Source: Candidatus Bathyarchaeota archaeon
GTDB lineage: Archaea > Thermoproteota > Bathyarchaeia > Bathyarchaeales > Bathycorpusculaceae
Direction of reading: 5' to 3'
Length of the DNA: 64,000 nt
Assembly (NCBI GenBank): GCA_026014465.1
Contig: JAOZID010000010.1
Location: forward strand, 838,303 to 902,302
Numbering within the stretch: the stretch's first letter is position 1; the number at the start of each line of letters is the position of its first letter. A program made the translations under genes and the position numbers. Shown here one piece after another: positions 24,047 through 60,087 of this stretch. The notes under the pieces are model-generated. The model had not been told where the DNA came from, did not search any database, and worked only from the letters and a program-made list of their open reading frames with translations.

Positions 24047-24134
24047 GCAGGGGTCTCCAAGCCAGGTCAACGGAGTAGGGCTTAGGACCCTATCGCGTAG
24101 GCGTTCGTGGGTTCGAATCCCACCCCCTGCACCA
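24047..24134 (+). tRNA. tRNA-Leu (anticodon UAG), class II with long variable arm, CCA encoded
   Basis: Hand fold. Acceptor gcagggg/cccctgc, D arm ctcc..ggag, anticodon stem taggg/cccta with loop cTTAGga, variable arm tcgcgtaggcgttc, T arm gtggg-ttcgaat-cccac, then a-cca. Confidence 0.9.
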
Positions 24135-24147
24135 TATATAAATAAAC
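24109..24147 (+). repeat. attL: tRNA-Leu 3' end plus 13 nt flank
   Basis: gggttcgaatcccaccccctgcaccatatataaataaac; 36/39 identical to 48737-48775. Confidence 0.85.
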
Positions 24148-24191: not shown

Positions 24192-25484
24192 TTAAAGCTT
24201 CCTTTTTCTAAAGATTTTAGCGTCTTGAAAATCGGTGACATATTCAAATCCTGCCTCTATTAGGCTGCAGACGTCTTTTTCGGTTTTAGCTACTTTAGAG
24301 ATGTAGTCGGTTTCTCCTTGGAAGAGGGCTTCTTCGAGTTGGATGTATAGCAGCGTGTTTTTGATGTTTTTGTGGCCGAGCCTTTGCATGACGTAGTAGA
24401 TGTCTTTGGTTTGATGGTAGAGTATGGTGCCTTTCCAGTGTCGGAAGGTGTGGAAGTGGATTTTCATCAGTCTTGGGTTGCTGAGCTTGCGGGCTAACCG
24501 TTTTCTTTGAATGCAGAATAGTGTTCCGAAGTGGTCAACTGGCATGGGTGCATGTGAAAAGATTCTTTCGCCGTAGATTTTAGGTATCTGCGTCAGCATT
24601 TCCAACATTTTATTGCTTAGGTGTACGACTCTTGGGTTACTGTTTTTTTCGGCTGTGATGTTTACGACTTTGCTTTCGAAATCTATGTCGTCCCATTTGA
24701 GCTGCCAAATTTCGCCGCATCGTGCGCCTGTTTCTTTGAGCATCTGCAGGAAAGTTGCCACGCGTTGGGTGCAGCCTGCGATGAGCTGGTCGATTTCGGT
24801 TTCTTTGGGAATGAAGGGCAGTTTGCGTATGCATTGGTATAGTGGGGCGTCCCATTTGCCGCCAGCCATTTTTAGGAATGAGCTGTAGGCGTCGACTGCG
24901 TTGTTTTTTCTGCCGTTGCTCCAGGTTTGTTTAGCTATGACTGCTTTGATTGTTTCGGGGTCGTAGAGGTCTGCGCCGCGTTTTACCATAACAAAGAGCA
25001 GTTTTGAGCGTCCAAGTATGGTTTGTTCGCTGTAGCCGCCTTTTTTCAACCACCAGATGTATTCAACGATTTTTCCTTTTACGTCAGGTTCGTTTCTCCG
25101 CAGAACTTCGGCTGTTTGAGGTTCTGCTGCCAAGTTTTTCGTCTCCATGACGCATATTTGGCTACCCTCTAGTATGCCCTCGAAGGTTTTTAATGACTTC
25201 GTATCAACGGTTGAAATATTTTCAATGGTTCGCTTTGCCTGCTGCAGGTCGTTTGGGTCTGAGAATCGCAGGCCACAGTCCCGGCAGATCCATCGTTGAA
25301 TCTTTTGTCCATAAAAAATTCGGTTGCCATCCCGCCAAACTTTTTTGGAGTTGCATCGTGGGCATTGGGGGCTGACGTCGGCGGAGCCGTCTGCAGACTC
25401 CGACTTACATGAGTTTGAACCGGCTTTGGTGGTGCCAAATACGCAGTCTGGGGGTTGTGTCGCGTTTGGTGTAAGTTCAGCCAT
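24192..25484 (-). CDS. int: tyrosine recombinase / integrase with N-terminal zinc ribbon
   Basis: CPRCNSKKV...CRDCGLRF ribbon. C-terminal catalytic blocks ARCGEI (Arg), HTFRHW (His-x-x-Arg), LGHKNIKNTLLYIQL (His..Tyr). Confidence 0.9.
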   Translation of the reverse strand: MAELTPNATQPPDCVFGTTKAGSNSCKSESADGSADVSPQCPRCNSKKVWRDGNRIFYGQKIQRWICRDCGLRFSDPNDLQQAKRTIENISTVDTKSLKTFEGILEGSQICVMETKNLAAEPQTAEVLRRNEPDVKGKIVEYIWWLKKGGYSEQTILGRSKLLFVMVKRGADLYDPETIKAVIAKQTWSNGRKNNAVDAYSSFLKMAGGKWDAPLYQCIRKLPFIPKETEIDQLIAGCTQRVATFLQMLKETGARCGEIWQLKWDDIDFESKVVNITAEKNSNPRVVHLSNKMLEMLTQIPKIYGERIFSHAPMPVDHFGTLFCIQRKRLARKLSNPRLMKIHFHTFRHWKGTILYHQTKDIYYVMQRLGHKNIKNTLLYIQLEEALFQGETDYISKVAKTEKDVCSLIEAGFEYVTDFQDAKIFRKRKL

Positions 25485-40535: not shown

Positions 40536-42176
40536 TTATTCTCCGCCCATGCCACCAGGCATTCCGCCGGGGCCGCCTCTGGGGGATTTAGCTGTTATAA
40601 TGTCGTCTACGCGTAGGATCATAGCTGCTGATTCCGCTGCTGATTTGATGGCTTGCTCTTTGACGACTATGGGTTCGATGACGCCGTTATCGATGCTGTT
40701 TTGGAGTTTGCCAGTGAATATGTTGATGCCCATGTATTTGCCGTCTTCTTTGTCATGTACTTGACGTAGCTCTATGAGTGTGTCAATTGATTCTAAGCCG
40801 CCGTTCTCTGCAAGCGTGCGTGGAATGACTTCGACTGCGTCAGCAAAGGCTTCCACGGCGAGTTGTTGTCTTCCGCCAATTTTGGTTGAGTAATTGCGTA
40901 GTTCTTTGGCGATTTCGATTTCGATGGCTCCGCCGCCAGCGACTATTTTGTTATTTTCCGTTACGTCTGAAATTACGGATAACGCGTCAGTTATGACTCT
41001 TTCAGCTTCATCAACCATTCGCTCAAGCCCTGCACGTATTAGAATGGCTACTGAGTGAGGGTCTTTGCATTTTTCGACGAAAATCATTTTGTCATCGCCA
41101 ATCTTGCGTTCTTCCACTAAACCCGCAAAACCCAAATCTGCCGCCTTTAAATCATTCAAATTAGAGCTCACTCGCCCTCCTGTAGCTCTCGCGAGTTTTT
41201 CCATGTCGGATTCTTTTACTCGACGTGCTGCCATGATGCCTTCTTTAGAGAGAAAGTGTTGTACCATGTCGTCGATACCTTTTTGGCAGAACACAATGTT
41301 TGCGCCTGAAGCTTTAATCTTGGTCACCATCTCTTTTAGTGTGCTATCCTCTTGGTCTAAGAAAGCTTTCATCTGGTTTGGTTCATGGATGCGTATTTCC
41401 GCAGTTATTTCGGTTTTTTCAATTTCTAACGCAATGTCTAAAAGGGCAATTTTTGCGTTCTCTATCTTTTTGGGCATTCCCGAATTAATGACTTCTTTGT
41501 CCACGATTATGCCTCTGACGAGTTGTGTCTCGATGAGGCTTTTTCCTGTCTTTTTCACCAGTTGTATGTTATCTATGTCGGCTATCGTCTGGTCTGCGGC
41601 CTTCTGGGTTACTTGTTTTACCGCTTCTAGGGCTATTTCTGCAAAGTGCTCTTTAGCACCACCCACAGCTTTGCTGCCCATAGCGGTCAAAGCGACTTTC
41701 AGCATCATTTTTTGATTCTCTACGTCAATGGGCACCGCGTTTTTTGCAATTATCTCGATTGCTTTCTGTGCTGCTTTACGGTATCCTGCGACAAGTATCA
41801 TTGGGTGGACGTTTTGGTCTAGGAGTTGTTCGGCTTTTTTGAGCAGTTCACTGGCTAACACTACGACGGTTGTTGTTCCGTCGCCGACCATGTCGTCTTG
41901 GGTTTTGGCGATTTCAATCATCATTTTTGCCGCTGGGTGCTCCACGTCCATTTCCTTGAGAATTGTGGCGCCGTCGTTGGTTATGGTGATGTCGCCTAAG
42001 CTGTCGATAAGCATTTTATCCATGCCCCGTGGGCCCAGAGTAGTTTTAAGCACTTCACCGATGACTTGGGCGGCCATAATGTTGTTTCGTTGGGCTTCTT
42101 TGCCCCTACTTCTGGTGGTTCCTTCCTTTAGGATGAGGACCGGTTGACCACTTTGGGTTTGTGTTAAATATGCCAT
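40536..42176 (-). CDS. ths: thermosome subunit (group II chaperonin)
   Basis: 546 aa, VGDGTTTVVVLA ATP-binding motif, ITNDGATIL, C-terminal GGPGGMPGGMGGE tail. Confidence 0.95.
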   Translation of the reverse strand: MAYLTQTQSGQPVLILKEGTTRSRGKEAQRNNIMAAQVIGEVLKTTLGPRGMDKMLIDSLGDITITNDGATILKEMDVEHPAAKMMIEIAKTQDDMVGDGTTTVVVLASELLKKAEQLLDQNVHPMILVAGYRKAAQKAIEIIAKNAVPIDVENQKMMLKVALTAMGSKAVGGAKEHFAEIALEAVKQVTQKAADQTIADIDNIQLVKKTGKSLIETQLVRGIIVDKEVINSGMPKKIENAKIALLDIALEIEKTEITAEIRIHEPNQMKAFLDQEDSTLKEMVTKIKASGANIVFCQKGIDDMVQHFLSKEGIMAARRVKESDMEKLARATGGRVSSNLNDLKAADLGFAGLVEERKIGDDKMIFVEKCKDPHSVAILIRAGLERMVDEAERVITDALSVISDVTENNKIVAGGGAIEIEIAKELRNYSTKIGGRQQLAVEAFADAVEVIPRTLAENGGLESIDTLIELRQVHDKEDGKYMGINIFTGKLQNSIDNGVIEPIVVKEQAIKSAAESAAMILRVDDIITAKSPRGGPGGMPGGMGGE

Positions 42177-46075: not shown

Positions 46076-46219
46076 CTATTCTTTTTTGACTATCCACGTC
46101 TTTATCGCGTCTTCGACAGCGCGGGATAGGTCGCCTTTTTTTCCGCCAAATTTTTGAACTGTCTTTATTCTGAGTTGCTTTTCGAGTTCATCAGGTAAAT
46201 CTACGCTTATTCGACCCAT
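46076..46219 (-). CDS. 47-aa ribbon-helix-helix (CopG-like) protein
   Basis: Hand-translated MGRISVDLPDELEKQLRIKTVQKFGGKKGDLSRAVEDAIKTWIVKKE, the classic RHH pattern (beta strand ISVDLP, two helices); below track cutoff. Confidence 0.6.
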   Translation of the reverse strand: MGRISVDLPDELEKQLRIKTVQKFGGKKGDLSRAVEDAIKTWIVKKE

Positions 46220-46629
46220 AGTTCATCTTCGGCTTGTTTTTTGTGCACTGTGAGCCCGCATCCCTTATTTTTCTGATCTATTTGAGTTCACTTATGCGCA
46301 TATACTGTTATGTGCACAGTAGCTTATATACATATGCCAACAAGTGTTAAAGATTAAAAAAACTCCACACCCACTAGTATTCGTTTATCGTGGAATCCAC
46401 AACTACTCTACAACCATGACAATTTAACACTTTGTCACTCGTGCAGCTTTTCGATTACGAAGAAGGGCATTTGACAATAATGAAGAGTGATAAATTGAAA
46501 AAAGGCAACATAGAAATGCTTGTCTGCTATGCTGTTTATTGAGTGGAATTTTGTGAATCATCGCAGATATTTTGATTCTCCTAATTGTGGAAGCTGCATA
46601 TACAAAGGAAGCAGTTACGGTTGGGGACA

Positions 46630-48144: not shown

Positions 48145-48357
48145 TCATGTGCCTGAAGCAAGAAAGGCGGGCCGCTTGGATTTGAGTCTATCAACAAAGT
48201 CTAAATCCGCTTTCGCACGTTCCAGTTTCTTTAGAGCATTCTTTCTAGAGCGGGTCACGTTGGGCGTTTCCACCTTTAGTTTGCGAGCAATCCTATAATC
48301 AGACAACCCATCAACATTCAAACGTAAAATTGCCTTCTCCCGCTCAGTCAACGCCAT
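48145..48357 (-). CDS. small HTH protein (Tfx/LuxR-like), paralog B
   Basis: LTEREKAILRLNVDGLSDYRIARKLKVETPNVTRSRKNALKK. Confidence 0.65.
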   Translation of the reverse strand: MALTEREKAILRLNVDGLSDYRIARKLKVETPNVTRSRKNALKKLERAKADLDFVDRLKSKRPAFLASGT

Positions 48358-48736
48358 AGCTATGTCTCCTCTTCAGAAGTGTCATGTAAAGTCACGCCTT
48401 CGGCTAGCAAGTCCTTCTCTGATGCTTTGTAGGCGTCTACGCCAAAGCTTGTCATAGCCCAGCACCAACCGCGCCGCTCAACAACCACCGAATCCAATTC
48501 CTTTGGCTGCCGCATGAAGTGCATTTGACCTTCTTTCGAGGAACACCAGTAAATAGATCGGCTGGCAATGCTTTGCCGCAGTGAGGACAATTGATTATCT
48601 TTCGACTCAAAGATGCCATCTCCTGCCAAACCTGCTACTAGACAGCAGATGTCCTTAAAAAAGAAAAAAGGGAGAGAAGCTGCGGAGAAACTAAGCTGGA
48701 AATTGGACGCCGATGGTGATACAAGGGCGATTTTTC

Positions 48737-48775
48737 GGGTCCGAATCCCACCCCCTGCACCAAATATAAACAAAC
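48737..48775 (+). repeat. attR: displaced copy of tRNA-Leu 3' end plus flank
   Basis: gggtccgaatcccaccccctgcaccaaatataaacaaac. The 21-nt perfect core cgaatcccaccccctgcacca is shared with 24114-24134. Confidence 0.85.
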
Positions 48776-48883
48776 AGGCCCTAGGCGTTGAGTATTATCC
48801 TTTTTTCAATACTTGAATGTGTAAAAAGCGGATTTCTGCAATAGCGCTTTTATAATAACAGAAGTAGTTGTAGCTGGAAAAAG

Positions 48884-51301
48884 TTGCCGACTTCTTACTA
48901 CTGCAGAAAATGTGGCAAAACCCACTCGCATCAGGAATACTCCCAGAGTTTATTCTGCAAAGAATGCGGCAGCTTTCTTAAACGAGGCAGAAAACCAAAT
49001 AATTTCAGACCTTCCTCAATCAATAAGCCCTCACAGTCTAAACCAACAAACGTACCAAAGAAAGAAACCACCCCGCAAATAATGCAACCATCACAAAATC
49101 CCGTTGCACACACTCAAGAAATTCCTGCACAAGAAGCATGCTTTGAAGAGTTAGAAAAACCCCTTCCAGAAAACATAAGCACCTATTTGCAAAATAAAAA
49201 AATTAAATTTTATTCCCATCAGGCAGAAGCCATAAACAAAGCACGACAAGGCAAAAACGTAATTATTACCACCCACACAGCTTCAGGAAAAACTTTGGCA
49301 TTTAATATTCCGGTTTTTGATGCCCTCACAAACGATAAAAAAGCAACAGCACTCTACATTTATCCCTCAAAAGCTCTAACAAATGATCAACTTAAAGTTT
49401 TGCAGGAAATCGAGAAAGGCACTGGCATCAAAGCAGATTCTAACGTTTACGATGGTGACACGCCAAAAGAGCAGCGTGCAGTTATACGTGAAAATTCCAG
49501 AATAATTTTGACTAACCCTTATGGTTTGCATCTTTACCTTCCATGGCATAGGCTCTGGCGGTCTTTTTTTCAAAACTTAAGGTATATTGTACTTGATGAA
49601 GCGCATGTTTACCGAGGCGTTTTTGGCTCAAACGTCGCCATGCTTCTGAGAAGACTGCTGAGAATCTGCAATTTTTACCATGCAGACCCTCAAATCATAC
49701 TCTCATCAGCAACTATAGCTAATCCGCAGGAACACGCAAAGAAACTAACTGGAAAAGATTTCGAAATAATTTCAAACGATGGCTCCCCAAGAGGAAAAAA
49801 ATCGTTCATATTTTGGAATCCACCCTTCACTAACCCAGCAAAAACAATTCGCCGATCAACACATCAAGAAACCAAAGACCTTCTTACAGTTAGCGTCATG
49901 AAAAACTTGCAAACCCTCTGCTTTACAACCTCGCGACAAATGGCGGAGCTTATAGCAAGATGGACTAAAGAAGAGCTGAAAAGAAGAAATCCTAAGCTTT
50001 ACAGTTCAGTAACTGCCTACAGGGCAGGTTACCTTCCTCAAGAACGACGGGACATAGAAAATCGTCTAAAAACCAAGGACTTAATCGGTTTGGTTTCTAC
50101 AAATGCGTTAGAACTTGGTATTGATATAGGTTCTTTGGACGCCGTGATAATTTCGGGTTACCCGGGGACAGTCATATCTACGTGGCAGCAAGCTGGACGC
50201 GCAGGTAGAAACAAAAACGATTCAACCGTTACTTTGGTTGCTTTCCAAAATCCGCTTGATCAATATTTTATGAAGCATCCACAAGAGTTCTTTGATAGAC
50301 CACATGAGCAAGCAATCATTAATCTGCACAATCGGCAAATTACTTCAGGCCATATTATGTGTGCATCTGACGAGTTGCCGCTTACCGATTCGGACCAAAA
50401 ATATTTTCCAGAGCTCTTCAAAGAAAGTGTTCAAGCCCTTGCACAAAAAAACCTTCTGAAAAAAACTTCACAGGGTTGGACGTACTCTGGGCTGGAAAGG
50501 GCAACTAGAGTTGTTAACCTTGAAAGTATTAGCGGAAAAACAGTGAATGTACTTTGCAATGGGCATATTCTTGAAACACTTCCCTTAAACAAGGCTTATG
50601 AAGAAACCCATGCAGGAGCAATCCTTCTACATCAAGGCGAAACCTACCGCTCAGAAGAACTAAATCTCAACAATTTCACTGCAACGGTTCGGAAAGAGAA
50701 TACCAACTATTATACTGAAACACAAAAAAGCGTCGAAGTAGCAATCAAGAAAACATTGGAAGAAACGCAAACAAACCTCAAAACCTCTTTGGGCGAATTA
50801 ATAATCACTGAAAATTGTCATTCATACGTAATTAAATCCAATGATGTAATCATCAAAAAACATACGCTTGATTTGCCCTCTTCGTCTTTCTCAACGGTTG
50901 GTATGTGGTTTATTGTTCCTGAACAGATTAGAGAAGAAGTTGAGGATAAAGGCTTGAATTTCGAGGGTGGATTGCATGCTCTTGAACATGCCATTATTGC
51001 GATGGCGCCAATGTTTGCAATGTGTGACCGTTGGGACATAGGCGGAATGTCAACAGCCGAGCATACAGACACAGGAAAACCAACAATCTTCATTTACGAT
51101 GGTTTTGAGGGAGGAATCGGTATTTCAGAAAACCTTTATTCAAACATAAAACCGCTATTAGAAAAAACGTTAAAGTTGATTGAAACCTGCGAATGCAAAG
51201 AAGGCTGTCCATCCTGCATATACTCGCCTAAATGCGGAAACGGAAACGAGCCATTAGATAAAAAGGCAGCAAACATCATCTTGCAACGTTTAATTAAATA
51301 A
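48884..51301 (+). CDS. DEAD/DEAH-box helicase with C-terminal DUF1998 (MrfA/YprA/Hrq1-like) and N-terminal zinc ribbon
   Basis: Motif I TASGKTL, motif II VLDEAHVYRGVFGSNVAMLLRRL, motif VI QQAGRAGR, C-terminal CECKEGCPSCIYSPKCGNGN four-Cys cluster. N-terminal CRKCG...CKECG. Confidence 0.88.
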   Translation: MPTSYYCRKCGKTHSHQEYSQSLFCKECGSFLKRGRKPNNFRPSSINKPSQSKPTNVPKKETTPQIMQPSQNPVAHTQEIPAQEACFEELEKPLPENISTYLQNKKIKFYSHQAEAINKARQGKNVIITTHTASGKTLAFNIPVFDALTNDKKATALYIYPSKALTNDQLKVLQEIEKGTGIKADSNVYDGDTPKEQRAVIRENSRIILTNPYGLHLYLPWHRLWRSFFQNLRYIVLDEAHVYRGVFGSNVAMLLRRLLRICNFYHADPQIILSSATIANPQEHAKKLTGKDFEIISNDGSPRGKKSFIFWNPPFTNPAKTIRRSTHQETKDLLTVSVMKNLQTLCFTTSRQMAELIARWTKEELKRRNPKLYSSVTAYRAGYLPQERRDIENRLKTKDLIGLVSTNALELGIDIGSLDAVIISGYPGTVISTWQQAGRAGRNKNDSTVTLVAFQNPLDQYFMKHPQEFFDRPHEQAIINLHNRQITSGHIMCASDELPLTDSDQKYFPELFKESVQALAQKNLLKKTSQGWTYSGLERATRVVNLESISGKTVNVLCNGHILETLPLNKAYEETHAGAILLHQGETYRSEELNLNNFTATVRKENTNYYTETQKSVEVAIKKTLEETQTNLKTSLGELIITENCHSYVIKSNDVIIKKHTLDLPSSSFSTVGMWFIVPEQIREEVEDKGLNFEGGLHALEHAIIAMAPMFAMCDRWDIGGMSTAEHTDTGKPTIFIYDGFEGGIGISENLYSNIKPLLEKTLKLIETCECKEGCPSCIYSPKCGNGNEPLDKKAANIILQRLIK

Positions 51302-51330
51302 CTTAAGAACCCTTTCAAAAACGTTTTTAA

Positions 51331-51379
51331 CTTATCACGTAGGCGTTAGTGGATTCAAATCCCACCCACCCCTGCACTA
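51331..51379 (+). repeat. degenerate copy of tRNA-Leu 3' half (variable arm to acceptor)
   Basis: cttatcacgtaggcgttagtggattcaaatcccacccacccctgcacta versus tRNA 24089-24134; about 42 matches with a 2-nt insertion. Confidence 0.7.
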
Positions 51380-51538
51380 ACGCCTTCTTTTATATGGGAA
51401 AAGGTGGTATGATGGGGGCGAGAGATGTCTTCATGTACAAATAAACAGGAATTGAGGGATAGAAATAAATGATAAACCATAAAGGTAGGATTTGAACTGA
51501 CACATGGACTTATTTTTTGATTGTGAGGTTTCGTAATT

Positions 51539-52021
51539 ATGGAGAAGGAAATCAGCGTGGGATATGCAGTCATGAACAACTTGGAATCCTGGATGCGGTT
51601 AATTGATGTTGTTCGCAGGACTTTTCCCGGATTGGGCTCACAGGAAGAAATAGACGAATATAAAAATACAGTTGAAAAAAATATAGCCCGAAAGAGCGCA
51701 ATATGCGCCGTAACTGATAATGAGGTCGTTGGTTTTCTTTTGTTCTCTACAAAATATAACATGTTATGTCACATGGCCGTACATCCAGATTACCGGAGAA
51801 AAAAGGTTGCCTCAAGAATGATCGAGCTAATGTTAAACGATTTGGACAAAACCCAGGATATTGTGGTTTTGACTTTTCGAGCAGACGATGAAAAAGGGGA
51901 CGCTCCCCGCGCTCTATACAAAAGCTTTGGATTTGAAGCGGATGAGCTATGCTATAACATGAACTACCCCGAACAAAAATTTATTTTACGTGCAAACCAT
52001 AATTCACCAGACTTAACCTGA
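51539..52021 (+). CDS. GNAT-family N-acetyltransferase
   Basis: 160 aa; VVGFLLFS...LCHMAVHPDYRRKKVASRMIELML...LYKSFGF pattern. Confidence 0.75.
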   Translation: MEKEISVGYAVMNNLESWMRLIDVVRRTFPGLGSQEEIDEYKNTVEKNIARKSAICAVTDNEVVGFLLFSTKYNMLCHMAVHPDYRRKKVASRMIELMLNDLDKTQDIVVLTFRADDEKGDAPRALYKSFGFEADELCYNMNYPEQKFILRANHNSPDLT

Positions 52022-52274
52022 TACCAAAGAAACATCGAAGGCGATTACACAACACAAATAGCGCTTAACACGTTTTCGTTAGAAGGTGTTGCCGAAAATT
52101 TGCTATGCACAACAACAACCAACAGGCGCTACATGCGTTTCTGTTTTGTTGCCTGCAGGTTAACCACCACAAGCAGAAACACCTAACACCAGAACAACTG
52201 TGATTAACTTTAAGCAAAAACCTCAATTCACGTAAATAACAAATAACAAACAAAAGAACTTCATGCACTTCAAG

Positions 52275-52297
52275 TTCGAATCTCACCCCTTCACCAA
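52275..52297 (+). repeat. possible fourth, highly degenerate tRNA-Leu 3'-end remnant
   Basis: gttcgaatctcaccccttcacca versus gttcgaatcccaccccctgcacca (about 20 of 24); no 5' tRNA half present. Confidence 0.35.
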
Positions 52298-52326
52298 AAT
52301 TGTTGTTTAGGGTGTGTAGTTAGAGT

Positions 52327-52932
52327 TTATGGTGGTTTTTTGTGTGGAGGCGGGAAGTCTACAGTGAAGTTTATTTGTTTTATGGGGGAGGCGTCTTTGA
52401 TGTTTCTTGGTGAGGTGGCAACTATGATTGTTAGGCCAGAGTGTTTTTCTATTCTGTTGAGTAAATAGGTGAGTTCAGCGTTGGCGTATCGGTTGTGTGC
52501 GTCTTTTACTTCGGTTCTTTTGCCAAATAAGGCATCTGCTTCATCAAAGAAGAGAACCGCGTTGCTTTCTTCTGCATCCTGAAATATTTTGTCTAGGTTC
52601 TTTTCTGTTTCTCCAATATACTTTCTGAGTGCCTTGGAGAGATCTACCGTATGCAGGTCCAGATTCAATTCATGAGCTAAAACTTGGGCAGCCAACAGTT
52701 TTCCTGCAGCATTAGAACCACAAAACAGTACGCAGGTACTTTTTCGTTCAGATTTTTTGGCTTTAGAAATTTTCACATCACGCTGTACATAATTGCAAAT
52801 TTCCTTTAGTTGACCTATTTTATCCAAAGGAAGCAAAAGATCAGCCCATACAGGCTTTGACACAACTTTGTTCACAAAAGAAACCGCTCGGAACTTAGCA
52901 TCTAAGGGTTTAGCCAACAATAATCCCTCCAA
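52327..52932 (-). CDS. short AAA+ ATPase with atypical Walker A
   Basis: CGSNAAGKLL (Leu where Thr/Ser is expected), YIGETEKNL, Walker B VLFFDEADALFGKR, then DAHNRYANAELTYLLNRIE. Confidence 0.75.
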   Translation of the reverse strand: MEGLLLAKPLDAKFRAVSFVNKVVSKPVWADLLLPLDKIGQLKEICNYVQRDVKISKAKKSERKSTCVLFCGSNAAGKLLAAQVLAHELNLDLHTVDLSKALRKYIGETEKNLDKIFQDAEESNAVLFFDEADALFGKRTEVKDAHNRYANAELTYLLNRIEKHSGLTIIVATSPRNIKDASPIKQINFTVDFPPPHKKPP

Positions 52933-53022
52933 ACATCAACCAGACACTATCAAACAAGAAACTAAAATAACCTTTCAAAACAAAAACAGCCGTTAACGCT
53001 TTGAATAGGCATTGCCAAGCGG

Positions 53023-53694
53023 TTAGGGGAAGTTAGCCTTTAGCAGTTGGGGCAAAAGTTGTTGGTAGGCTGGGTTGATGGTGTAAGTTGTTTGGGTTTT
53101 GTTGTTGTGTGCTTCTATGATGCCGTGGTTTTTTAGTTGGTGTATTTGCCAGGTTAGGGCTTGGGAGGTTATGTTTAGGTTGGAGGCTATGGTGGTGTGG
53201 TTGGTTTTGCCGTCGTTTTCTGCTATGGCGTTTAGGACTTTTTTGGCGGTTTTGTGGCGCAGAACGGAGAGTAGGGTGATTTCTTTTTCTGTGAAGGTGT
53301 TTGATTTGAAGAAGCGTTTGTGTTTTCCGTCGCGAACAAAGCAGATGCCGCCTTGTTTTTCCATGACTTGTATGTGGAACTGGACGGTGCCGATGGCTAA
53401 GCCTAGTCCTGTGCAGACTCCGCGAAAATCTACTCCGGGGTTTTTGGCGATAAAGGTGTTAATGGCGACTCTTGTTGAATTGAATTGGCTGATGTTTTGG
53501 TTGCAAATCAGGTTACTGTACTGAATTGGGCACAGAGCCGTTACGGAATCTGAGATTTCGTCAATCTGGACAAGGGCAGCGTTTTTTTCAGAAAAGCCAT
53601 GCACAGCGTCAGTTTGCAGCTGAATTAGAGCAGCAAAAGATAAAGCTATCAAAAACGCCAGAAGAAACCCAAAAGAGCCATTCTGCAGCCTCAT
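53023..53694 (-). CDS. membrane-anchored protein with two winged-helix (ArsR-like) units
   Basis: N-terminal TM (FGFLLAFLIALSFAALI), then GVCTGLGLAIGTVQFHIQVMEKQGGI and TTIASNLNITSQALTWQIHQLKNHGII. Confidence 0.6.
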   Translation of the reverse strand: MRLQNGSFGFLLAFLIALSFAALIQLQTDAVHGFSEKNAALVQIDEISDSVTALCPIQYSNLICNQNISQFNSTRVAINTFIAKNPGVDFRGVCTGLGLAIGTVQFHIQVMEKQGGICFVRDGKHKRFFKSNTFTEKEITLLSVLRHKTAKKVLNAIAENDGKTNHTTIASNLNITSQALTWQIHQLKNHGIIEAHNNKTQTTYTINPAYQQLLPQLLKANFP

Positions 53695-53902
53695 TTGTCA
53701 ACCAAAAAGCCATATTTCGTTGCAGCTTATAAAAATATTCGTAAACAACTGTACTAGTAAACCACCACCCACGCAGCAGTTTTGCTTCCACAAAACTCAT
53801 CAGGTTCAATATAAGGAAAAACACGGTAGACAAAAAGAAGGATTTTCAGAAAAGTTATTGTACCCAAATGCGTTAGGTGCTTTCCAAAGGAAGAACCTCA
53901 AA

Positions 53903-54781
53903 TTGGATAAAGATGCAGTTTTTGATGCCCGCGAGGTTGTTGTGGGGCTGGTTCAGATGGCGGTTTCAGAGAGTCCAGAAGATAATCTGAAGGTTACGGT
54001 GGAGAAGGTTGAGGAAGCCGTGCGTAGGGGTGCGCAGGTTGTTTGTTTGCAGGAGCTTTATCGTTTGAGGTATTTTCCGCAGCAGGAAAGTGTGGATGCA
54101 TCAGCGTTGGCTGAGTCTGTTCCGGGGGATTCTACGGCGGTGTTTTGTGAACTGGCAAGGCGGCTTGAAGTGGTTTTGGTTGTGCCCGTTTTCGAGAAAA
54201 CCGCTGAAGGCAAATTCTACAATTCGGCGGTGGTTATTGACGCGGATGGCTCGGTTTTGGGGGTTTACCGCAAAATTCACGTGCCCTTTGACCCGCTGTT
54301 TTATGAGAAGAACTATTTTGAGCAGGGCAACGGCGGTTATGGGGTTTATCAGACGCGTTATGGCTGCGTTGGCGTTTTGATTTGCTATGACCAATGGTTT
54401 CCTGAGGCTGCGCGAATCAACGTTTTAGAGGGCGCAGACATCATATTCTACCCCACGGCTATAGGCACCGTCAAAGGCTGCAACTCGGATGATGGAAACT
54501 GGCAGGAAGCATGGCAGACAGTGCAGCGCGGACACGCGATTGTTAATGGGGTTCATGTGGCGGCGGTGAATCGGGTCGGCGTTGAAGGCGAGTTGGAGTT
54601 TTGGGGTGGCTCGTTTGTTTGTGATTCGTTTGGCAAAATCTTAGCCCAAGCGGGGCGCAGCGAAGAAGTTTTGGTTGTAAAGGTAGACTTGAGCAAAAAC
54701 CAACGTATCCGTGAAGGCTGGGGTTTTCTGGATAACCGACGCCCCGACACCTACAAAAAACTAACCCAGAGTAAACCATAA
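53903..54781 (+). CDS. aguB: N-carbamoylputrescine amidase (CN-hydrolase family)
   Basis: VVCLQELY, YRKIHVP, ICYDQWFPE (catalytic Cys). Start set at in-frame TTG 53903; the track ORF N-terminal 61 aa look non-coding. Confidence 0.85.
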   Translation: MDKDAVFDAREVVVGLVQMAVSESPEDNLKVTVEKVEEAVRRGAQVVCLQELYRLRYFPQQESVDASALAESVPGDSTAVFCELARRLEVVLVVPVFEKTAEGKFYNSAVVIDADGSVLGVYRKIHVPFDPLFYEKNYFEQGNGGYGVYQTRYGCVGVLICYDQWFPEAARINVLEGADIIFYPTAIGTVKGCNSDDGNWQEAWQTVQRGHAIVNGVHVAAVNRVGVEGELEFWGGSFVCDSFGKILAQAGRSEEVLVVKVDLSKNQRIREGWGFLDNRRPDTYKKLTQSKP

Positions 54782-54794
54782 GGAAGAAGCAGGT

Positions 54795-55859
54795 ATGAAT
54801 TCTGTTGACGTTTTAGGCAAAACCCCTCGCGAGTTAGGCTACAGGATGCCTGCGGAATGGGAAAAGCACGACTCGATTTGGCTGTCTTGGCCCTACGACC
54901 CTGCTACGTTCCCGTTTCGGGTAGAAAAAGCTGAAGCAACCTACGTGGAAATCATAAAAAGCATTCATGAAAGTGAGCGGGTGAATTTGCTGGTTCGCGA
55001 CAAGGCAATGGAGCAGCGGGTGCAGCGGATGCTTTTGGGGGCAGGCGTGGATTTGGGTCAGGTGCGGTTTTTGCGGTTTGACTACGCGGATGTGTGGTTT
55101 CGCGATTATGGTCCCACCTTTGTGGTTCACGCGCAGGGGGGGTTGGGTATGGTTCGCTGGGTTTTTAATGCGTGGGGCGAAAAATACGATGACTTGTTAA
55201 AAGACCGCTACGTTGGGGATTACCTGCAGCAGCTGATGGTTGGGGTGCCGTGTTTTAAGCCACAGATCGTGTTGGAGGGCGGCTCAGTTGATGTTAACGG
55301 GAAAGGATTGGTGTTGACAACAGAGCAGTGTTTGCTAAACAGCAACCGCAACCCCGAGTTGGATAAAGCGCAAATCGAAGTAATCTTGAAGGATTACTTA
55401 AACGCCAAGAAGGTGATTTGGCTCAAAAAGGGCATAGCAGGCGATGATACGGATGGTCACGTGGATGATATTGCCCGCTTCGTTAGTCCCAGCACGGTTT
55501 TGTGCACCTACGAACCCGACCCCACCGACGAGAACCACGAAATCTTAAAGGAAAACTATGAACTCCTCTGCGACTTTTGTGACCAAGACGGCAACAAACT
55601 CAACGTCATCAAACTGCCCATGCCCACAGTTTTAGGAGACGAAAACGAACGCCTGCCTGCTAGCTACGCTAACTTTTACATAGGCAACAAAACCGTTTTG
55701 GTTCCAGTTTTTGACCATGAAAACGACGCTTTGGCGTTGTCGATTATTCAAGAGCAGTTCCCAGACCGCAAAGCAGTTGGCATTAACTGTGTCGACTTAA
55801 TCTACGGTTTAGGCTCGATACATTGCATCAGCCAGCAACAGCCAGCCGCAAAGGTTTAG
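54795..55859 (+). CDS. aguA: agmatine deiminase
   Basis: WLSWPYD, WFRDYGPTFV, LEGGSVDVNGKG, DGHVDDIARF, GSIHCISQQQP. Confidence 0.9.
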   Translation: MNSVDVLGKTPRELGYRMPAEWEKHDSIWLSWPYDPATFPFRVEKAEATYVEIIKSIHESERVNLLVRDKAMEQRVQRMLLGAGVDLGQVRFLRFDYADVWFRDYGPTFVVHAQGGLGMVRWVFNAWGEKYDDLLKDRYVGDYLQQLMVGVPCFKPQIVLEGGSVDVNGKGLVLTTEQCLLNSNRNPELDKAQIEVILKDYLNAKKVIWLKKGIAGDDTDGHVDDIARFVSPSTVLCTYEPDPTDENHEILKENYELLCDFCDQDGNKLNVIKLPMPTVLGDENERLPASYANFYIGNKTVLVPVFDHENDALALSIIQEQFPDRKAVGINCVDLIYGLGSIHCISQQQPAAKV

Positions 55860-55903
55860 GTTTCCGCGAAAGGTTATAGTAGGTTTGTCGGGAAGGTGTT
55901 TGT

Positions 55904-56695
55904 ATGTCAAAGTTGTATGTGCAGCCTTTGTGCCATGATGATTTGCCGGATTTTGTTGATTTCGCGTGTTTGGGGGGTTATAATTTGGAGGTTGCTTCGT
56001 TTTCTTTTGCTAACGTGTATGAAACAAATTGGCAGGAGGTTTTGGAGGAGCACAAGCGCAGGTTGTTGGGTTTTGGTGGGGAGGTTTCGTTTCATGGGGT
56101 TTTTCAAGATTTAAGCGTGCACAGCAGTGACAAGCGGATTTGGCAGGTTTCTAAAGAAAGAATTCAAAGTAGCTTGGAGGTGGCGCAGGCATTGAACGCG
56201 TCAAAAGCGGTTTTTCACGGGAATTTTAATCCGTTCATAACTGACCCGGACTACAAGAAAAACTGGGTGGAACGCAACGCAGAGTTTTGGAGCCAAGCCT
56301 TAGACAGTTTTGGGGGCATAATACTTTTGGAGAATGTTTGGGATGCTTTGCCTGACGCGTTCGGGGCGCTTTTTGAGGCGGTGGGTTCTTCGCGGTTTAA
56401 GATGTGCTTTGATGTGGGGCACGCGAACGTGTATTCAAAAAAGCCGTTAAAAGAGTGGCTCTCTGATTTACGGTCGGAGATTGTGTACATGCACTTTAGT
56501 GATAACGCGGGCGAGGCGGATCAGCATTTGGAGATGGGCAAAGGCAAAATCGACTGGAACCAGTTCACCCAAGAACTTGAAAACCAAAACATGCACCCCG
56601 ACGTCACGCTGGAAATGATAACCCTAGAAAAAACCAAAAACTCAGTGCAGTACATGCAAAAACACGCAATATACCCCTTCAACCAAGCCAAATAG
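55904..56695 (+). CDS. sugar phosphate isomerase/epimerase (xylose-isomerase-like TIM barrel)
   Basis: VFHGNF, LLENVWD, CFDVGHANV, MHFSDN metal-ligand-like blocks. Confidence 0.7.
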   Translation: MSKLYVQPLCHDDLPDFVDFACLGGYNLEVASFSFANVYETNWQEVLEEHKRRLLGFGGEVSFHGVFQDLSVHSSDKRIWQVSKERIQSSLEVAQALNASKAVFHGNFNPFITDPDYKKNWVERNAEFWSQALDSFGGIILLENVWDALPDAFGALFEAVGSSRFKMCFDVGHANVYSKKPLKEWLSDLRSEIVYMHFSDNAGEADQHLEMGKGKIDWNQFTQELENQNMHPDVTLEMITLEKTKNSVQYMQKHAIYPFNQAK

Positions 56696-56832
56696 GAAGA
56701 ATGCAGGTTTTCTTGGGTGTGATTGGTAAAACCTGTAAACGGTAAGCAAATACATTTAACAGTCTGCAGGGAAATCCAGATTTGGAGAGGTAAACGCTGA
56801 GTCTGTATAGGCTTCGCGCCCAAAAAGATGAT

Positions 56833-57378
56833 GTGCTGTTTGGTTTGGCAAATGTAGCGCGGCGGTGTGGTTTTACGCCTAATATGATGACGGCGTTGGG
56901 TTTGGGTTTTGGCGTAGCTTCGGGTGCTGCGTTATCGTTTGGGGGGTTGTTGTTTGCGTTTGCCTTTGGGTTTTTAAGCGTGTTTTGTGATGTGCTGGAC
57001 GGGACTATAGCGCGCAAGTTCCATTTAGAATCAAAAGAGGGGCTGGTTTTTGACTCGTTTGCTGACCGAACCTCAGAACTCGCAGTTGTAGTCGGCGCAT
57101 TGGCAGGCGGCATCATAGAACCCATCGGAGTAGTCGCCATCGTCGGCTCCACCGCACTTTTCGCCCTACGCAGCCTAAGCCACTCACGCGGATTCAAAAC
57201 CGACTACGTCTACTTTGGCAGAGCAGAACGCCTCACCTTCATACTGCTAGGACTAATCGTGCCTGCCTCAGGCATAAGCAGCCTATGCTTCGTACTCGCA
57301 GGCGGCTTTGGATTATTCTCTTCCGCCCAAATCGCAGTGTTTCTGTGGCGCCAAAAAATACACATGCAACCCGCATAA
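56833..57378 (+). CDS. CDP-alcohol phosphatidyltransferase family protein
   Basis: CDVLDGTIARKFHLESKEGLVFDSFADRTSE fits D-G-x2-A-R-x8-G-x3-D-x3-D exactly. GTG start; true N-terminus uncertain. Confidence 0.85.
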   Translation: MLFGLANVARRCGFTPNMMTALGLGFGVASGAALSFGGLLFAFAFGFLSVFCDVLDGTIARKFHLESKEGLVFDSFADRTSELAVVVGALAGGIIEPIGVVAIVGSTALFALRSLSHSRGFKTDYVYFGRAERLTFILLGLIVPASGISSLCFVLAGGFGLFSSAQIAVFLWRQKIHMQPA

Positions 57379-57407
57379 CCAACTGCAACAAGCCAGAAAA
57401 AATGGCG

Positions 57408-58313
57408 TTACGGAGTTTTTCTTCGTTTGAAGAAGCTTAGCACTATGGCAACTACAATAACAGCCAACGCTGCGGCTAAGACGATTATGCCTACGGGTAT
57501 GTGCGTGGTGGGGGTGGGTTGGGTTGTGGAGGCGTGCATGAGGGGGTAGCGGTCTTGATTTAGGACATCAATGATGTAGGGGGTATCGCCAATGCCATCA
57601 CCGTCTGCGTCGGTTCCTGTATAGTCGCTCCAGTAGTTGCCGCGTCCGCCGTAATCCCAAGTGTGTACTTCCTCATCTGTGGTGTAGGGGTTTTCGCAAA
57701 AGCAACCGCTAAAATGCACGTCGTTATCTACAAATGCGTTATGAGCCAAAACAATATCGAGGGGTTCGTCGCCTGGCGTGTTTACTCCAAAGAAGATGCC
57801 TTGTTCGTTGCGTGCTATGTGGTTTTCCATGATGCGGTTGGAGTCGCCTGAGAGCAGGATGCCTACGATGTTGTCAGTTACCGAGCAGCCTTGCAAGGTG
57901 TTATGCGAGGTCCAAAGGTAGATGCCTACGTAAAAGTTGCGTATGTTAAGGTTGCACACGGTGAGGTTTTGGAGTCCTTTGCGGGCTAAATCGATGCCCA
58001 TGGTCCAGGGTACGGGGCTTAGGTCTTGGTCGGGGCCTTTTCCCACTACGAAATCGTCGGTTCGGGTGCCATTGTAGGTACCTTCTAACGTGTAGCCTGA
58101 GCCGTCGATTACGATGTTGTCGCAGTCAACGATTATGGAGGCGTAGACGTTTCCCGTGAAGGTGTAGACGTTGCCGTAGCGTTGAATGGGGTATGTTGTG
58201 GGTTCAAGGCTGCCGTCGGGCAAAATCTTGACGGTGGGCGGGTTATTTTCTGCGTCTTGGGCGGCAACGGCGGGTAACATCAGGCAAAACGCCAAAGCCA
58301 GAATCATAACCAA
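57408..58313 (-). CDS. surface-anchored right-handed parallel beta-helix (NosD/PbH1-like) protein
   Basis: Signal peptide, repeated ..N.I.GI.L....N.I..N.. turns, DADGDGIGD calcium-like loop, PTPTT linker, C-terminal TM plus KRRK. Confidence 0.7.
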   Translation of the reverse strand: MVMILALAFCLMLPAVAAQDAENNPPTVKILPDGSLEPTTYPIQRYGNVYTFTGNVYASIIVDCDNIVIDGSGYTLEGTYNGTRTDDFVVGKGPDQDLSPVPWTMGIDLARKGLQNLTVCNLNIRNFYVGIYLWTSHNTLQGCSVTDNIVGILLSGDSNRIMENHIARNEQGIFFGVNTPGDEPLDIVLAHNAFVDNDVHFSGCFCENPYTTDEEVHTWDYGGRGNYWSDYTGTDADGDGIGDTPYIIDVLNQDRYPLMHASTTQPTPTTHIPVGIIVLAAALAVIVVAIVLSFFKRRKTP

Positions 58314-58335
58314 AAGGGCGGGTTTGTGCGTCGTT

Positions 58336-60087
58336 TTAGGCAGCCTCCTCTGGTTGGTTTGGTTTGTCGTTGGATTTATTGTTTAGCCAGTTGCGTGACT
58401 TCGCCACGGTTTTTCCCAGAACCTTGAATTGCAGGCAGTCTTCGTAGGGGCACATCTCCACACACCGCAAGCACATTATGCATTGGGAAGTTGCCACGTC
58501 CCCGCCTTTGAGCTCGTAAACCTCGGTAACTTCAGTTGGGCAGACCCGTTTGCAGATGCCGCATTTCGTGCATTTCTCCGCGGTTTTCTCCAGCCGCACC
58601 CCCGACACCCACTTAAACGGCGCAAAACGGTTAAACAACGCAATCAACCCGCCCAACGGACAAATGCGACACCACGAACGCCTGAAAAAGAACGCTGCTA
58701 TAGTAACTAGAATCAGTATGGAAACGTTTAGCGATGTTACGTATTGTCCTAGTTGGAGGAAGTCGCCTGTGGTGGGGCTGAAAATCCAGTCGGGGCGCAT
58801 TACGCCTGTGTATGCTTGGGAGAAGACGCATAGGGGCTTCATGGGGCAGACTTGGCAAAACGGCGCGGCAAAGTACGTGTAGATGAAGCCGCCTTTTTCG
58901 GTTTCGGGGATTAGTTGGGTGCCAAATAGGCTTTGGGAAGCAAAAAGTACGCTTAGAATGAGCATGGCGGCTAATATGACGTAGCTTAGCTGGTGGAAGC
59001 GTTCGTTAAATTTGGGTGAGAAACGCCGATGCCGTATCTGCAGGGCTTTACGCAGGCGGGTAATCAAATCCACGTACAGTCCAAACGGGCAAATCCAGCC
59101 ACACCAAAACCTGCCCAGCAGAACCGAAGCCACAACCACCAACCCAACCACAATCGCCAACCGCTCCGCGCCTGACATCAAGTAATCTACGCCCCAGCCG
59201 CGTCCCGCATCCCAAAACGGGTAAATGTACGCCTGCAGCTCCCAAAGCGGACACGTCACCGTGCGTCCACAGGGAAACCAGCAGCCAAAAACAGGCAAAG
59301 GCAAACCATCAGGCAAATCCCCAAAAGCCTCTGCACCGATAAGGTATTCGTGAGTGGCGATTTGCTCGGCGGGTATGGGCAAGTTTTGATGGTCGACAAA
59401 AACGCCAAAGAAGATTAGGAAAATAAAGGCGATTTGCACGAACAATCGTATGCCACTAATGGTTCGGGTTTTGTTTCTTGCTCCTGCAGCTATAGCAACT
59501 ACGCCTACGCTTAGCGATATGGCAGCTAACGCAAAGATGAGGTAGTTAGGTTTGAATGGGGGCAAGGGTAGGGGGGTGGGTTGGGGTGCGAGGGGGTTGT
59601 TGGGGTCGGTGACGTTGGCGTAGAGTCTGTCGCTTATGTGGTCGCGGATGGGAAAGATGTTCCAGTAACCAACCATGTCAAGCGTTTGGGTTACAGAGAA
59701 GCGCCCCTGCGCGTCCGTGGTTACGTTACGATCAATCCACGTGTAATCAGGACGAGTAAAAGTTACGCGTATAGTAAAGTTGGCGTCAGGAGGAGAGATT
59801 TCGCCCCAAACGGTAACCGACTCACCCAAGTAAACGTCGACCTTGCTGATGTTTGCGGTTATGCAAGGACCATAGCAGGCAAGAGGCGGCTCAACCTCAT
59901 AGGCAGCGGGGGTTTGCTGGTTAACCTGTGTAGCGAGCGGGGCGGGATTGTTGGTTGCGGCGGTAGCTTGCAGGGCAAAAGGCTGAGCTACAGATAAGAA
60001 AAAGACTGCGACAAGCAGCATGGCAGGTACAAAAACGGTTTTGGGCGACAACTTCCTTTGCTTGCTAGAAGCCAGAGCCACACCCAT
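58336..60087 (-). CDS. NapH/MauN-like polytopic 4Fe-4S (polyferredoxin) membrane protein with N-terminal extracytoplasmic Ig-like domain
   Basis: Repeated CxxxCP motifs on TM loops (FWCGWICPFG, SWCRICPLGG) and a C-terminal 2x[4Fe-4S] ferredoxin (CTKCGICKRVCP...CIMCLRCVEMCP). Confidence 0.75.
   Translation of the reverse strand: MGVALASSKQRKLSPKTVFVPAMLLVAVFFLSVAQPFALQATAATNNPAPLATQVNQQTPAAYEVEPPLACYGPCITANISKVDVYLGESVTVWGEISPPDANFTIRVTFTRPDYTWIDRNVTTDAQGRFSVTQTLDMVGYWNIFPIRDHISDRLYANVTDPNNPLAPQPTPLPLPPFKPNYLIFALAAISLSVGVVAIAAGARNKTRTISGIRLFVQIAFIFLIFFGVFVDHQNLPIPAEQIATHEYLIGAEAFGDLPDGLPLPVFGCWFPCGRTVTCPLWELQAYIYPFWDAGRGWGVDYLMSGAERLAIVVGLVVVASVLLGRFWCGWICPFGLYVDLITRLRKALQIRHRRFSPKFNERFHQLSYVILAAMLILSVLFASQSLFGTQLIPETEKGGFIYTYFAAPFCQVCPMKPLCVFSQAYTGVMRPDWIFSPTTGDFLQLGQYVTSLNVSILILVTIAAFFFRRSWCRICPLGGLIALFNRFAPFKWVSGVRLEKTAEKCTKCGICKRVCPTEVTEVYELKGGDVATSQCIMCLRCVEMCPYEDCLQFKVLGKTVAKSRNWLNNKSNDKPNQPEEAA

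Follow-up and report, generated by a model that had tools for sequence, protein, structure and literature searches.

Why does one tRNA gene stand in front of several partial copies of its own 3′ end, all in the same orientation? This question is raised by a stretch of 64,000 nucleotides from Candidatus Bathyarchaeota archaeon, a member of the Bathycorpusculaceae (GenBank assembly GCA_026014465.1, contig JAOZID010000010.1, positions 838,303–902,302 of the forward strand). The whole stretch is referred to as the window, and its first letter is position 1. The sole tRNA gene found in the window by ARAGORN encodes tRNA-Leu(TAG). A preliminary description of this DNA held that elements had integrated serially into the functional tRNA and that the older ones had been pushed outward. 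That account is supported by a syntenic upstream flank, by tRNA fragments in direct orientation and by an empty site in another genome. The tRNA-Leu(TAG) 3′ end is very probably a hotspot of site-specific integration, and the window a tandem stack of elements. The features on which the argument depends are the following.

24047–24134, plus strand: intact tRNA-Leu(TAG) (ARAGORN), the integration target, with attL in its 3′ end.
24109–24147, plus strand: attL core of island 1, from the T-arm to CCA plus 13 nt (TATATAAATAAAC), defined by alignment to c2.
24135–48736: island 1, the newest element, 24.6 kb with a guanine-plus-cytosine (GC) content of 0.42, between attL and c2.
24192–25484, minus strand: tyrosine integrase of island 1, 430 aa, with an N-terminal zinc ribbon and a Phage_integrase domain.
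48737–48775, plus strand: c2, attR of island 1, a T-loop-class copy (alignment score 63).
48776–51379, plus strand: helicase cassette, remnant of a second, older element, 2.6 kb, GC 0.40, with no integrase.
48884–51301, plus strand: zinc-ribbon-fused helicase of the MrfA/YprA family, 805 aa (Pfam).
51331–51379, plus strand: c3, decayed attR of the helicase cassette, an anticodon-loop-class copy (nhmmer).
52274–52297, plus strand: c4, probable oldest detectable remnant of the tRNA 3′ end (score 31).
56833–60087: conserved downstream anchor genes, with homologs in eight relatives, marking the return to ancestral chromosome.

Local alignment of the tRNA with both strands of the whole window produced three outliers, all on the plus strand, and every remaining match scored 25 or less. 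Copy c2 has 1 mismatch in its tRNA-derived 26 nt, and the likeness runs 13 nt beyond the CCA. The alignment of c3 (51333–51377) scores 55 over 45 columns, with 4 mismatches and a 3-nt insertion; it had been described as 49 nt with about 6 mismatches and a 2-nt insertion, so the copy stands and its counts are revised. The remnant formerly given as 23 nt at 52275–52297 is c4, a 24-nt match containing 2 mismatches and a deletion of 1 nt. The preliminary description also called for comparison with shuffled sequence. When the full window was shuffled 40 times by a Markov model and searched on both strands, the maxima were 24–33, and the score of c4 was reached in 2 of the 40. Within the plus strand of a 5.45-kb zone from c3 to the conserved anchor, a zone picked after the data had been seen, the same score was reached in 0 of 1000 shuffles. 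The E-values are 0.0046 for c2, 9.4e-6 for c3 and 21 for c4 by nhmmer, and 1.5e-7, 9e-6 and 0.13, respectively, by blastn-short. Among the 40 tRNAs of the genome the best match of each copy is tRNA-Leu(TAG), and the variable arm specific to this tRNA is present in c3. The copies do not belong to another tRNA-like gene, as had been considered, since searches of 48500–53000 with ARAGORN and Rfam revealed neither an Rfam family nor a further gene of this kind. Because of these scores, shuffles, E-values and tRNA specificity, c2 and c3 are certainly real copies, far beyond chance, and c4 is only probably more than a chance match. An intact tRNA accompanied by displaced fragments of the same tRNA in direct orientation is the arrangement by which Islander recognizes integration.

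The surroundings of the tRNA in related genomes point the same way. Its upstream flank is syntenic with the window in 25 of 25 same-genus species representatives. The downstream side is different in every genome of the genus and non-syntenic in 13 relatives. The tRNA itself is the same at 88 of 88 positions in several relatives and in cassette-carrying genomes. In eight relatives (G003, G031, G016, G014, G015, G011, G005 and G008), homologs of 56833–57378, 57408–58313 and/or 58336–60087 return 3.7–14 kb from the tRNA; the distance in this genome is 32.7 kb. Since the anchor genes lie near the tRNA there and far from it here, the entire region 24135–56832 is a variable zone. Extra tRNA 3′ fragments, one to three per genome and in direct orientation, lie downstream in 7 of the 13 relatives, and no opposite-strand fragments were found in the 13. 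For instance, G014 has a 62-nt copy, then a post-tRNA flank of the window's type and a fragment of an integrase with 75% identity to that of the window, which is a clear case of nested integration. Arrays of 3–5 copies are common at the tRNA-Leu(TAG) locus in other genomes.

The most recent insertion is the best defined. The attL core of island 1 matches c2 at 36 of 39 positions, and the extension of the core beyond CCA is also found at the copies in relatives. A contig of a metagenome-assembled genome, JAWRIR010000062.1 (L038), is 89% identical to window 48737–51321 over 2586 nt, and an intact tRNA occupies the place of c2; L038 thus shows the empty site of island 1. The flank to the right of c2 is the tRNA flank of both L038 and L034. 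The GC of island 1 is at the 8th genome percentile (genome mean 0.476); the island is both absent from a related genome and foreign in composition, as Islander islands are. Some of the apparent mismatches in the copies are attP variants that also occur in other genomes and not decay. The T-to-C change of c2 is such a variant, because it is common to the fragment in GCA_026014735.1 (L036). The integrase next to attL is recognized by Pfam (PF00589, 3.1e-22) and, under the cut-off, by a XerA-like NCBIfam model, and its homologs adjoin the same tRNA in G018, G004 and G003. In SSV-type elements attP lies inside the integrase gene, which is split upon integration. Here the integrase open reading frame (ORF) is unbroken and ends 58 nt from the tRNA. 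A search of viral contigs for this integrase gave a best match of at most 46% identity and nothing close. The cargo of island 1 consists of transporters, regulators, a radical-SAM enzyme and a thermosome. The genome has four thermosome genes; that of island 1 (40536–42176, minus strand) shares 78.6% identity with the copy at C9:919782–921368 and is therefore an extra paralog, not the sole chaperonin.

Several observations touch on the island and its target without entering the argument. In G035 a plus-strand integrase-like ORF (L016 922–1869), 41% identical to the window's integrase, reads out of the tRNA, and a 30-nt tRNA copy (L016 11666–11695) lies 10.7 kb downstream; this layout, seen in no relative but G035, resembles that of an SSV-type integrase split by integration. 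The tRNA-Leu(GAG) gene of the present genome (C9:1273923–1274010) has a direct 3′ fragment 8.4 kb downstream (positions 61–86, score 37) and may mark another small island. A second element of this genome, C11:288402–297677, lies near tRNA-Lys(TTT) at C11:287713–287791. It shares 74–89% identical proteins with a capsid-gene provirus situated upstream of the helicase in L036, and it contains a 330-nt block 87% identical to the right end of island 1 (window 48176–48516). About 150 nt of island 1 (46077–46226) match at 72–83% several places in many genomes of the genus, as well as C9:379774–379917, and appear to be a repeated element or a small conserved gene. The ORF at 48360–48773 was considered as a conserved gene starting in the att site and rejected: among ORFs of this kind in relatives, the likeness is confined to the att-derived first 25–30 residues. 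Only its last 50 codons are conserved, at 88–90%, in other elements, and no Pfam, NCBIfam or PADLOC match was obtained for it.

Between c2 and c3 the helicase is the only gene (48776–51379), as the preliminary description had it. The segment thus has no recombination or transfer genes of its own, as is the case for cis-mobilizable elements (CIMEs). The protein carries DEAD (PF00270, 1.3e-35), Helicase_C (PF00271), WHD_HRQ1 (PF22982) and MZB (PF09369, 5.3e-26) domains, that is, the SF2 core, winged helix and C-terminal MZB/DUF1998 by which MrfA/YprA proteins are recognized; its score of 787.6 bits falls short of the TIGR03817 equivalog cut-off of 874.1. Its gene has a GC of 0.404, at the 4th genome percentile. 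The family is nearly genus-wide. The relatives have a type of about 760 aa, 63–73% identical, whose genes, at nine genus loci, have native GC, lie in chromosomal settings of several kinds and are not accompanied by tRNA fragments. The 805-aa type was found in none of the 25 same-genus species representatives, and the helicase of this genome belongs to a separate clade of 82–92% identity with an N-terminal extension. The first 32 aa of the protein (window 48884–48980) form a CxxC...CxxC zinc ribbon. An MrfB-like exonuclease gene (L039:4781–6013, OY970286.1) begins with a counterpart of 66% identity (E = 4e-11), and that gene precedes a native 760-aa helicase. No MrfB-like sequence was detected by tblastn anywhere in the present genome, and the helicase has no PF13482 neighbour of the kind that makes up an MrfAB pair. 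From these alignments, the 805-aa helicase looks like an mrfB-mrfA operon minus the exonuclease body. A role in defence was considered and rejected. The PADLOC matches to DruE, SngC, BrxH and DrmA span the generic helicase core only, and no partner genes of DISARM, Druantia, Dpd or ARMADA adjoin the helicase, so no defence system can be called.

The same cassette recurs at the same tRNA elsewhere. Its clade was examined in ten other assemblies (L033/L051, L034, L035, L036, L037, L038/L052, L049, L050, L053 and L054). In 10 of 10 of these Bathyarchaeia assemblies the 805-aa helicase lies directly downstream of the intact tRNA-Leu(TAG) or of displaced fragments, and in most of them a further tRNA copy follows it. 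At other helicase loci any tRNA match of score 30 or more was found in only 4 of 73. Window 48813–51377 is 82–90% identical in nucleotides to L033–L038, and the identity reaches into the non-coding flanks, namely the promoter and the 3′ arm. The helicases are 85–91% identical in amino acids, versus 26–68% for other chromosomal genes in the same loci (non-helicase median 50%), the taxonomic distance of the cassette-bearing genomes being judged only from genes in the fetched loci. The chromosome of OY970286.1 has both the island-type helicase and the native 760-aa, MrfB-linked type. Taken together, these comparisons indicate that the cassette has spread horizontally to the same tRNA in other Bathyarchaeia. 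It had been asked whether other genomes carry the helicase next to an integrase at tRNA-Leu; the location held in all ten assemblies, and no integrase-bearing copy of the cassette was found in 11 genomes.

Two further observations belong here. A 13-kb contig binned as Methanocella sp., JBLNCY010000005.1 (L055), contains an island-type helicase 88% identical to that of the window and no tRNA-Leu fragments; either the contig belongs to Bathyarchaeia and was mis-binned, or the gene has crossed between phyla. In L033 and L034, ORFs with YVTN repeats lie upstream of the helicase; considered as a hidden recombinase, they proved to be surface beta-propeller proteins.

The right end of the cassette reveals a second way of using the tRNA. 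Homology among the window, L033, L034 and L035 covers the stretch from the helicase stop codon up to the tRNA copy. In L035 the copy is 54 nt long (tRNA positions 35–88, score 91) and starts in the anticodon loop; c3 is its equivalent in the window and, relative to it, lacks 8 nt, has 3 nt inserted and differs by four substitutions. In its core from T-loop to acceptor, c3 has 3 mismatches and the 3-nt insertion, and the counterparts in L035 and L054 are well kept. The earlier suggestion that c3 came from another element, one whose att core was longer, is thus upheld, as the best-preserved homologous cassettes terminate in 54 nt of the tRNA, from the anticodon loop through CCA. Behind this copy in L035 lies a minus-strand C-terminal remnant of an integrase like the window's, a layout that would be expected if the parent of the cassette had entered an already occupied tRNA. 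The copies therefore represent two att classes at tRNA-Leu(TAG), one in the T-loop (c2) and the other in the anticodon loop (c3). They correspond to the two main classes, T-stem and anticodon-centred, in the Islander tables (PMC4383910). A candidate C-terminal remnant of an SSV-type integrase to the right of c3 was rejected, since the tblastn match (E = 0.004) came from the tRNA-derived part and contained stops.

The way in which such a stack could arise follows the general model for tyrosine integrases. The attP of an incoming element would recombine with the intact tRNA, and the element would restore the tRNA with sequence of its own; the old 3′ end would be pushed outward, together with everything behind it, as an attR copy. 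The integrase would catalyse each of these events, and the older elements would have lost theirs by deletion. The order along the window is the tRNA with attL, island 1, c2, the helicase cassette, c3, a remnant with a GNAT acetyltransferase gene, c4 (probable), low-GC debris, relocated chromosomal genes and the anchor. Any present movement of the helicase cassette would be purely passive. The T-loop core lies within its long attR, and because of this a T-loop-class integrase could conceivably excise the neighbour and the cassette jointly, as in the accretion of CIMEs. By analogy, passive co-mobilisation with a neighbouring element is the likeliest route of the cassette. We suggest only tentatively, and with some doubt, that the cassette is an archaeal counterpart of a CIME, derived from an mrfB-mrfA operon, devoid of an integrase, bounded by tRNA-Leu att sites and spreading between genera by co-excision. 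That it has been retained at the hotspot could be due to some advantage it confers, for example in repair or against other elements.

Beyond the cassette, and within c3 itself, the window contains the following features.

51341–51385, plus strand: 11-bp hairpin arising from c3 (GGCGTTAGTGG...CCACTAACGCC) and then TTCTTTT; folding energy -17.8 kcal/mol, z = -2.58.
51380–52273: third remnant, the GNAT acetyltransferase segment, GC 0.40 (Pfam GNAT).
51539–52021, plus strand: GNAT gene (Pfam), at the 4th genome GC percentile.
52327–53694, minus strand: further low-GC island debris (Pfam, PADLOC, GC).
52327–52932, minus strand: truncated IetA-like AAA ATPase, 201 aa (PADLOC IetA, 7.8e-18).
53023–53694, minus strand: double winged helix-turn-helix (wHTH) regulator of low GC (Pfam).

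The inverted repeat of the hairpin is perfect. Its right arm takes the place of the CCA end and has no counterpart in homologous copies from other genomes. The repeat may have arisen by a template-switch mutation and may now serve the helicase gene as a terminator. The GNAT gene has no match in the 25 genus genomes, and its closest homologs on longer contigs (73–75%) lie in bacterial neighbourhoods (frr-uppS-cdsA-dxr, or AraC/FGGY), which suggests acquisition across domains. A GNAT gene in L035 was considered as its homolog and rejected: the two have no similarity, and the common layout of helicase, copy, GNAT and copy is a coincidence of cargo type. The AAA ATPase gene, which ends 30 nt from c4 and lies at the 4th genome percentile in GC, spans only the middle of the anti-phage IetA profiles (69–202 of 374) and is probably what is left of a defence gene after truncation. 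A GC of 0.40–0.42, against 0.476 for the genome, is common to island 1, the helicase, the GNAT gene and the AAA fragment.

Several points weigh against a simple stack of integrated elements. c4 is not significant in the whole window by nhmmer, blastn-short or the 40 shuffles, and its left arm holds no supporting homology. Decay is not monotonic with distance from the tRNA. From the T-loop to CCA, c3 has 3 mismatches and a 3-nt insertion and c4 has 2 mismatches and a 1-nt deletion, so that c3 is more decayed than c4; the divergence said to rise with distance holds only for c2 versus the outer two copies. The genes in 53720–56800 have a core-like GC yet lie inside the variable zone, and their homologs are found elsewhere in relatives; therefore rearrangement, and not integration alone, shaped the locus. 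No intact parent carrying the helicase and an anticodon-loop-class integrase was found among viral contigs or all fetched loci, the best match to the helicase among viral contigs being 51% identical. Furthermore, tblastn with six integrase-like or tRNA-adjacent proteins found no integrase or fragment of one in 48776–57000, in agreement with the earlier remark that the older segments lack an integrase. It follows that the older elements are defined by att copies and foreign composition only, and that these segments are remnants and not callable islands, as Islander demands an integrase of each member.

Of the other explanations, the one that survives best concerns c4. It may be a chance match dominated by the T-loop motif GTTCGAATC, which would leave c2 and c3 as the only real older boundaries and unite the GNAT, AAA and wHTH sequences in one undivided remnant. 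The T-loop motif GTTCGAATC is near-universal, and besides the whole-window statistics and the lack of left-arm homology already mentioned, no homologous copy of c4 is known from elsewhere. The match is, however, on the same strand as the other copies, intergenic and within the low-GC zone; it resembles tRNA-Leu(TAG) more than any other of the 40 tRNAs, its score was not reached in the 1000 local shuffles, and arrays of 3–5 copies are frequent at this locus in other genomes. We therefore hold a chance origin of c4 to be possible and rather unlikely.

Less probable again, and in our judgement improbable, is that the cassette was never mobilised as a unit, a larger element having integrated independently in each lineage and decayed convergently to the helicase. 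L033 and L034 keep an extra cargo gene, encoding a YVTN beta-propeller protein, upstream of the helicase, and the content of the cassette accordingly varies. Nevertheless, its left boundary (about 48813–48824) and its right arm are alike in all copies. Convergent deletion to identical boundaries in at least six genomes is unlikely, and an integrase-bearing copy was found in none of 11 genomes.

The weakest explanation, that island 1 alone integrated next to a helicase that was the ancestral neighbour of the tRNA, with c3 and c4 arising through partial, local tRNA duplication or chance, gains something from the presence of the helicase family in nearly the whole genus and its likeness to housekeeping repair genes, from its position beside the tRNA in many genomes and from the missing integrase, but it is very improbable in view of the absence of the 805-aa type from all 25 same-genus representatives, the native GC and fragment-free surroundings of the 760-aa type, the foreign GC of the window's helicase, its 85–91% identity to counterparts in genomes whose other genes are about 50% identical, the presence of both types on one chromosome, and a cassette copy whose start falls precisely in the anticodon loop, where crossover canonically takes place, and which is followed in L035 by the integrase end of an older element. 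Serial integration at the tRNA-Leu(TAG) 3′ end remains the preferred reading.

This reading gives exact limits to horizontally acquired DNA of Bathyarchaeia, in the form of a tRNA, three att copies and a conserved anchor. tRNA-Leu(TAG) emerges as an integration hotspot common to this genus and neighbouring lineages of the Bathy-6 type, and at least two att classes target the one tRNA. It also explains why the only MrfA-type helicase of the genome is a fusion of foreign origin that lacks the exonuclease. In the annotation of uncultured archaea the locus can serve directly as a marker of integrated elements and of what they carry, and the cassette offers a tractable case in which to test for integrase-less hitchhiking in archaea.

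Tandem islands at tRNA genes are established (Hudson, Lau and Williams 2015, PMC4383910), and tandem islands at ssrA, some of them integrase-less and proposed to be cis-mobilizable by accretion, have been described (McMurdie et al. 2011, PMC3146451). The present locus is a new example of this known pattern, namely tandem tRNA-gene islands with cis-mobilizable-like remnants. It resembles the Islander islands in its regenerated tRNA, in the direct-orientation 3′ fragments at the island ends, in the tyrosine integrase by attL, and in having two att classes at one tRNA gene and a tandem array. Unlike the tandem islands of Islander, in which each member has an integrase, only the newest member has one here, and unlike the other Islander cases the host is an uncultured lineage of Bathyarchaeia. 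Similarly, the ssrA arrays of Dehalococcoides contain many direct 3′-end repeats downstream of a single-copy RNA gene, in a strain-variable low-GC region with some members devoid of integration genes; there the target is tmRNA and the enzyme a serine integrase, whereas here tRNA-Leu(TAG) of an archaeon is targeted by a tyrosine integrase. As in the CIMEs that accompany streptococcal integrative and conjugative elements, a short cassette without recombinase or transfer genes, putatively flanked by att sites, stands in tandem with an integrase-bearing element. In contrast to those CIMEs, c3 is decayed, the outer att is of a longer class than that of the neighbour, and mobilisation of the cassette is putative. 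Finally, the helicase has the domain series of MrfA/YprA helicases (PMC7797055; 10.1101/2025.09.15.676423), with DEAD, Helicase_C, winged helix and MZB in common, yet it differs from them in having no MrfB partner, in being fused to the N-terminal zinc ribbon of MrfB, and in being island-borne and horizontally spread.

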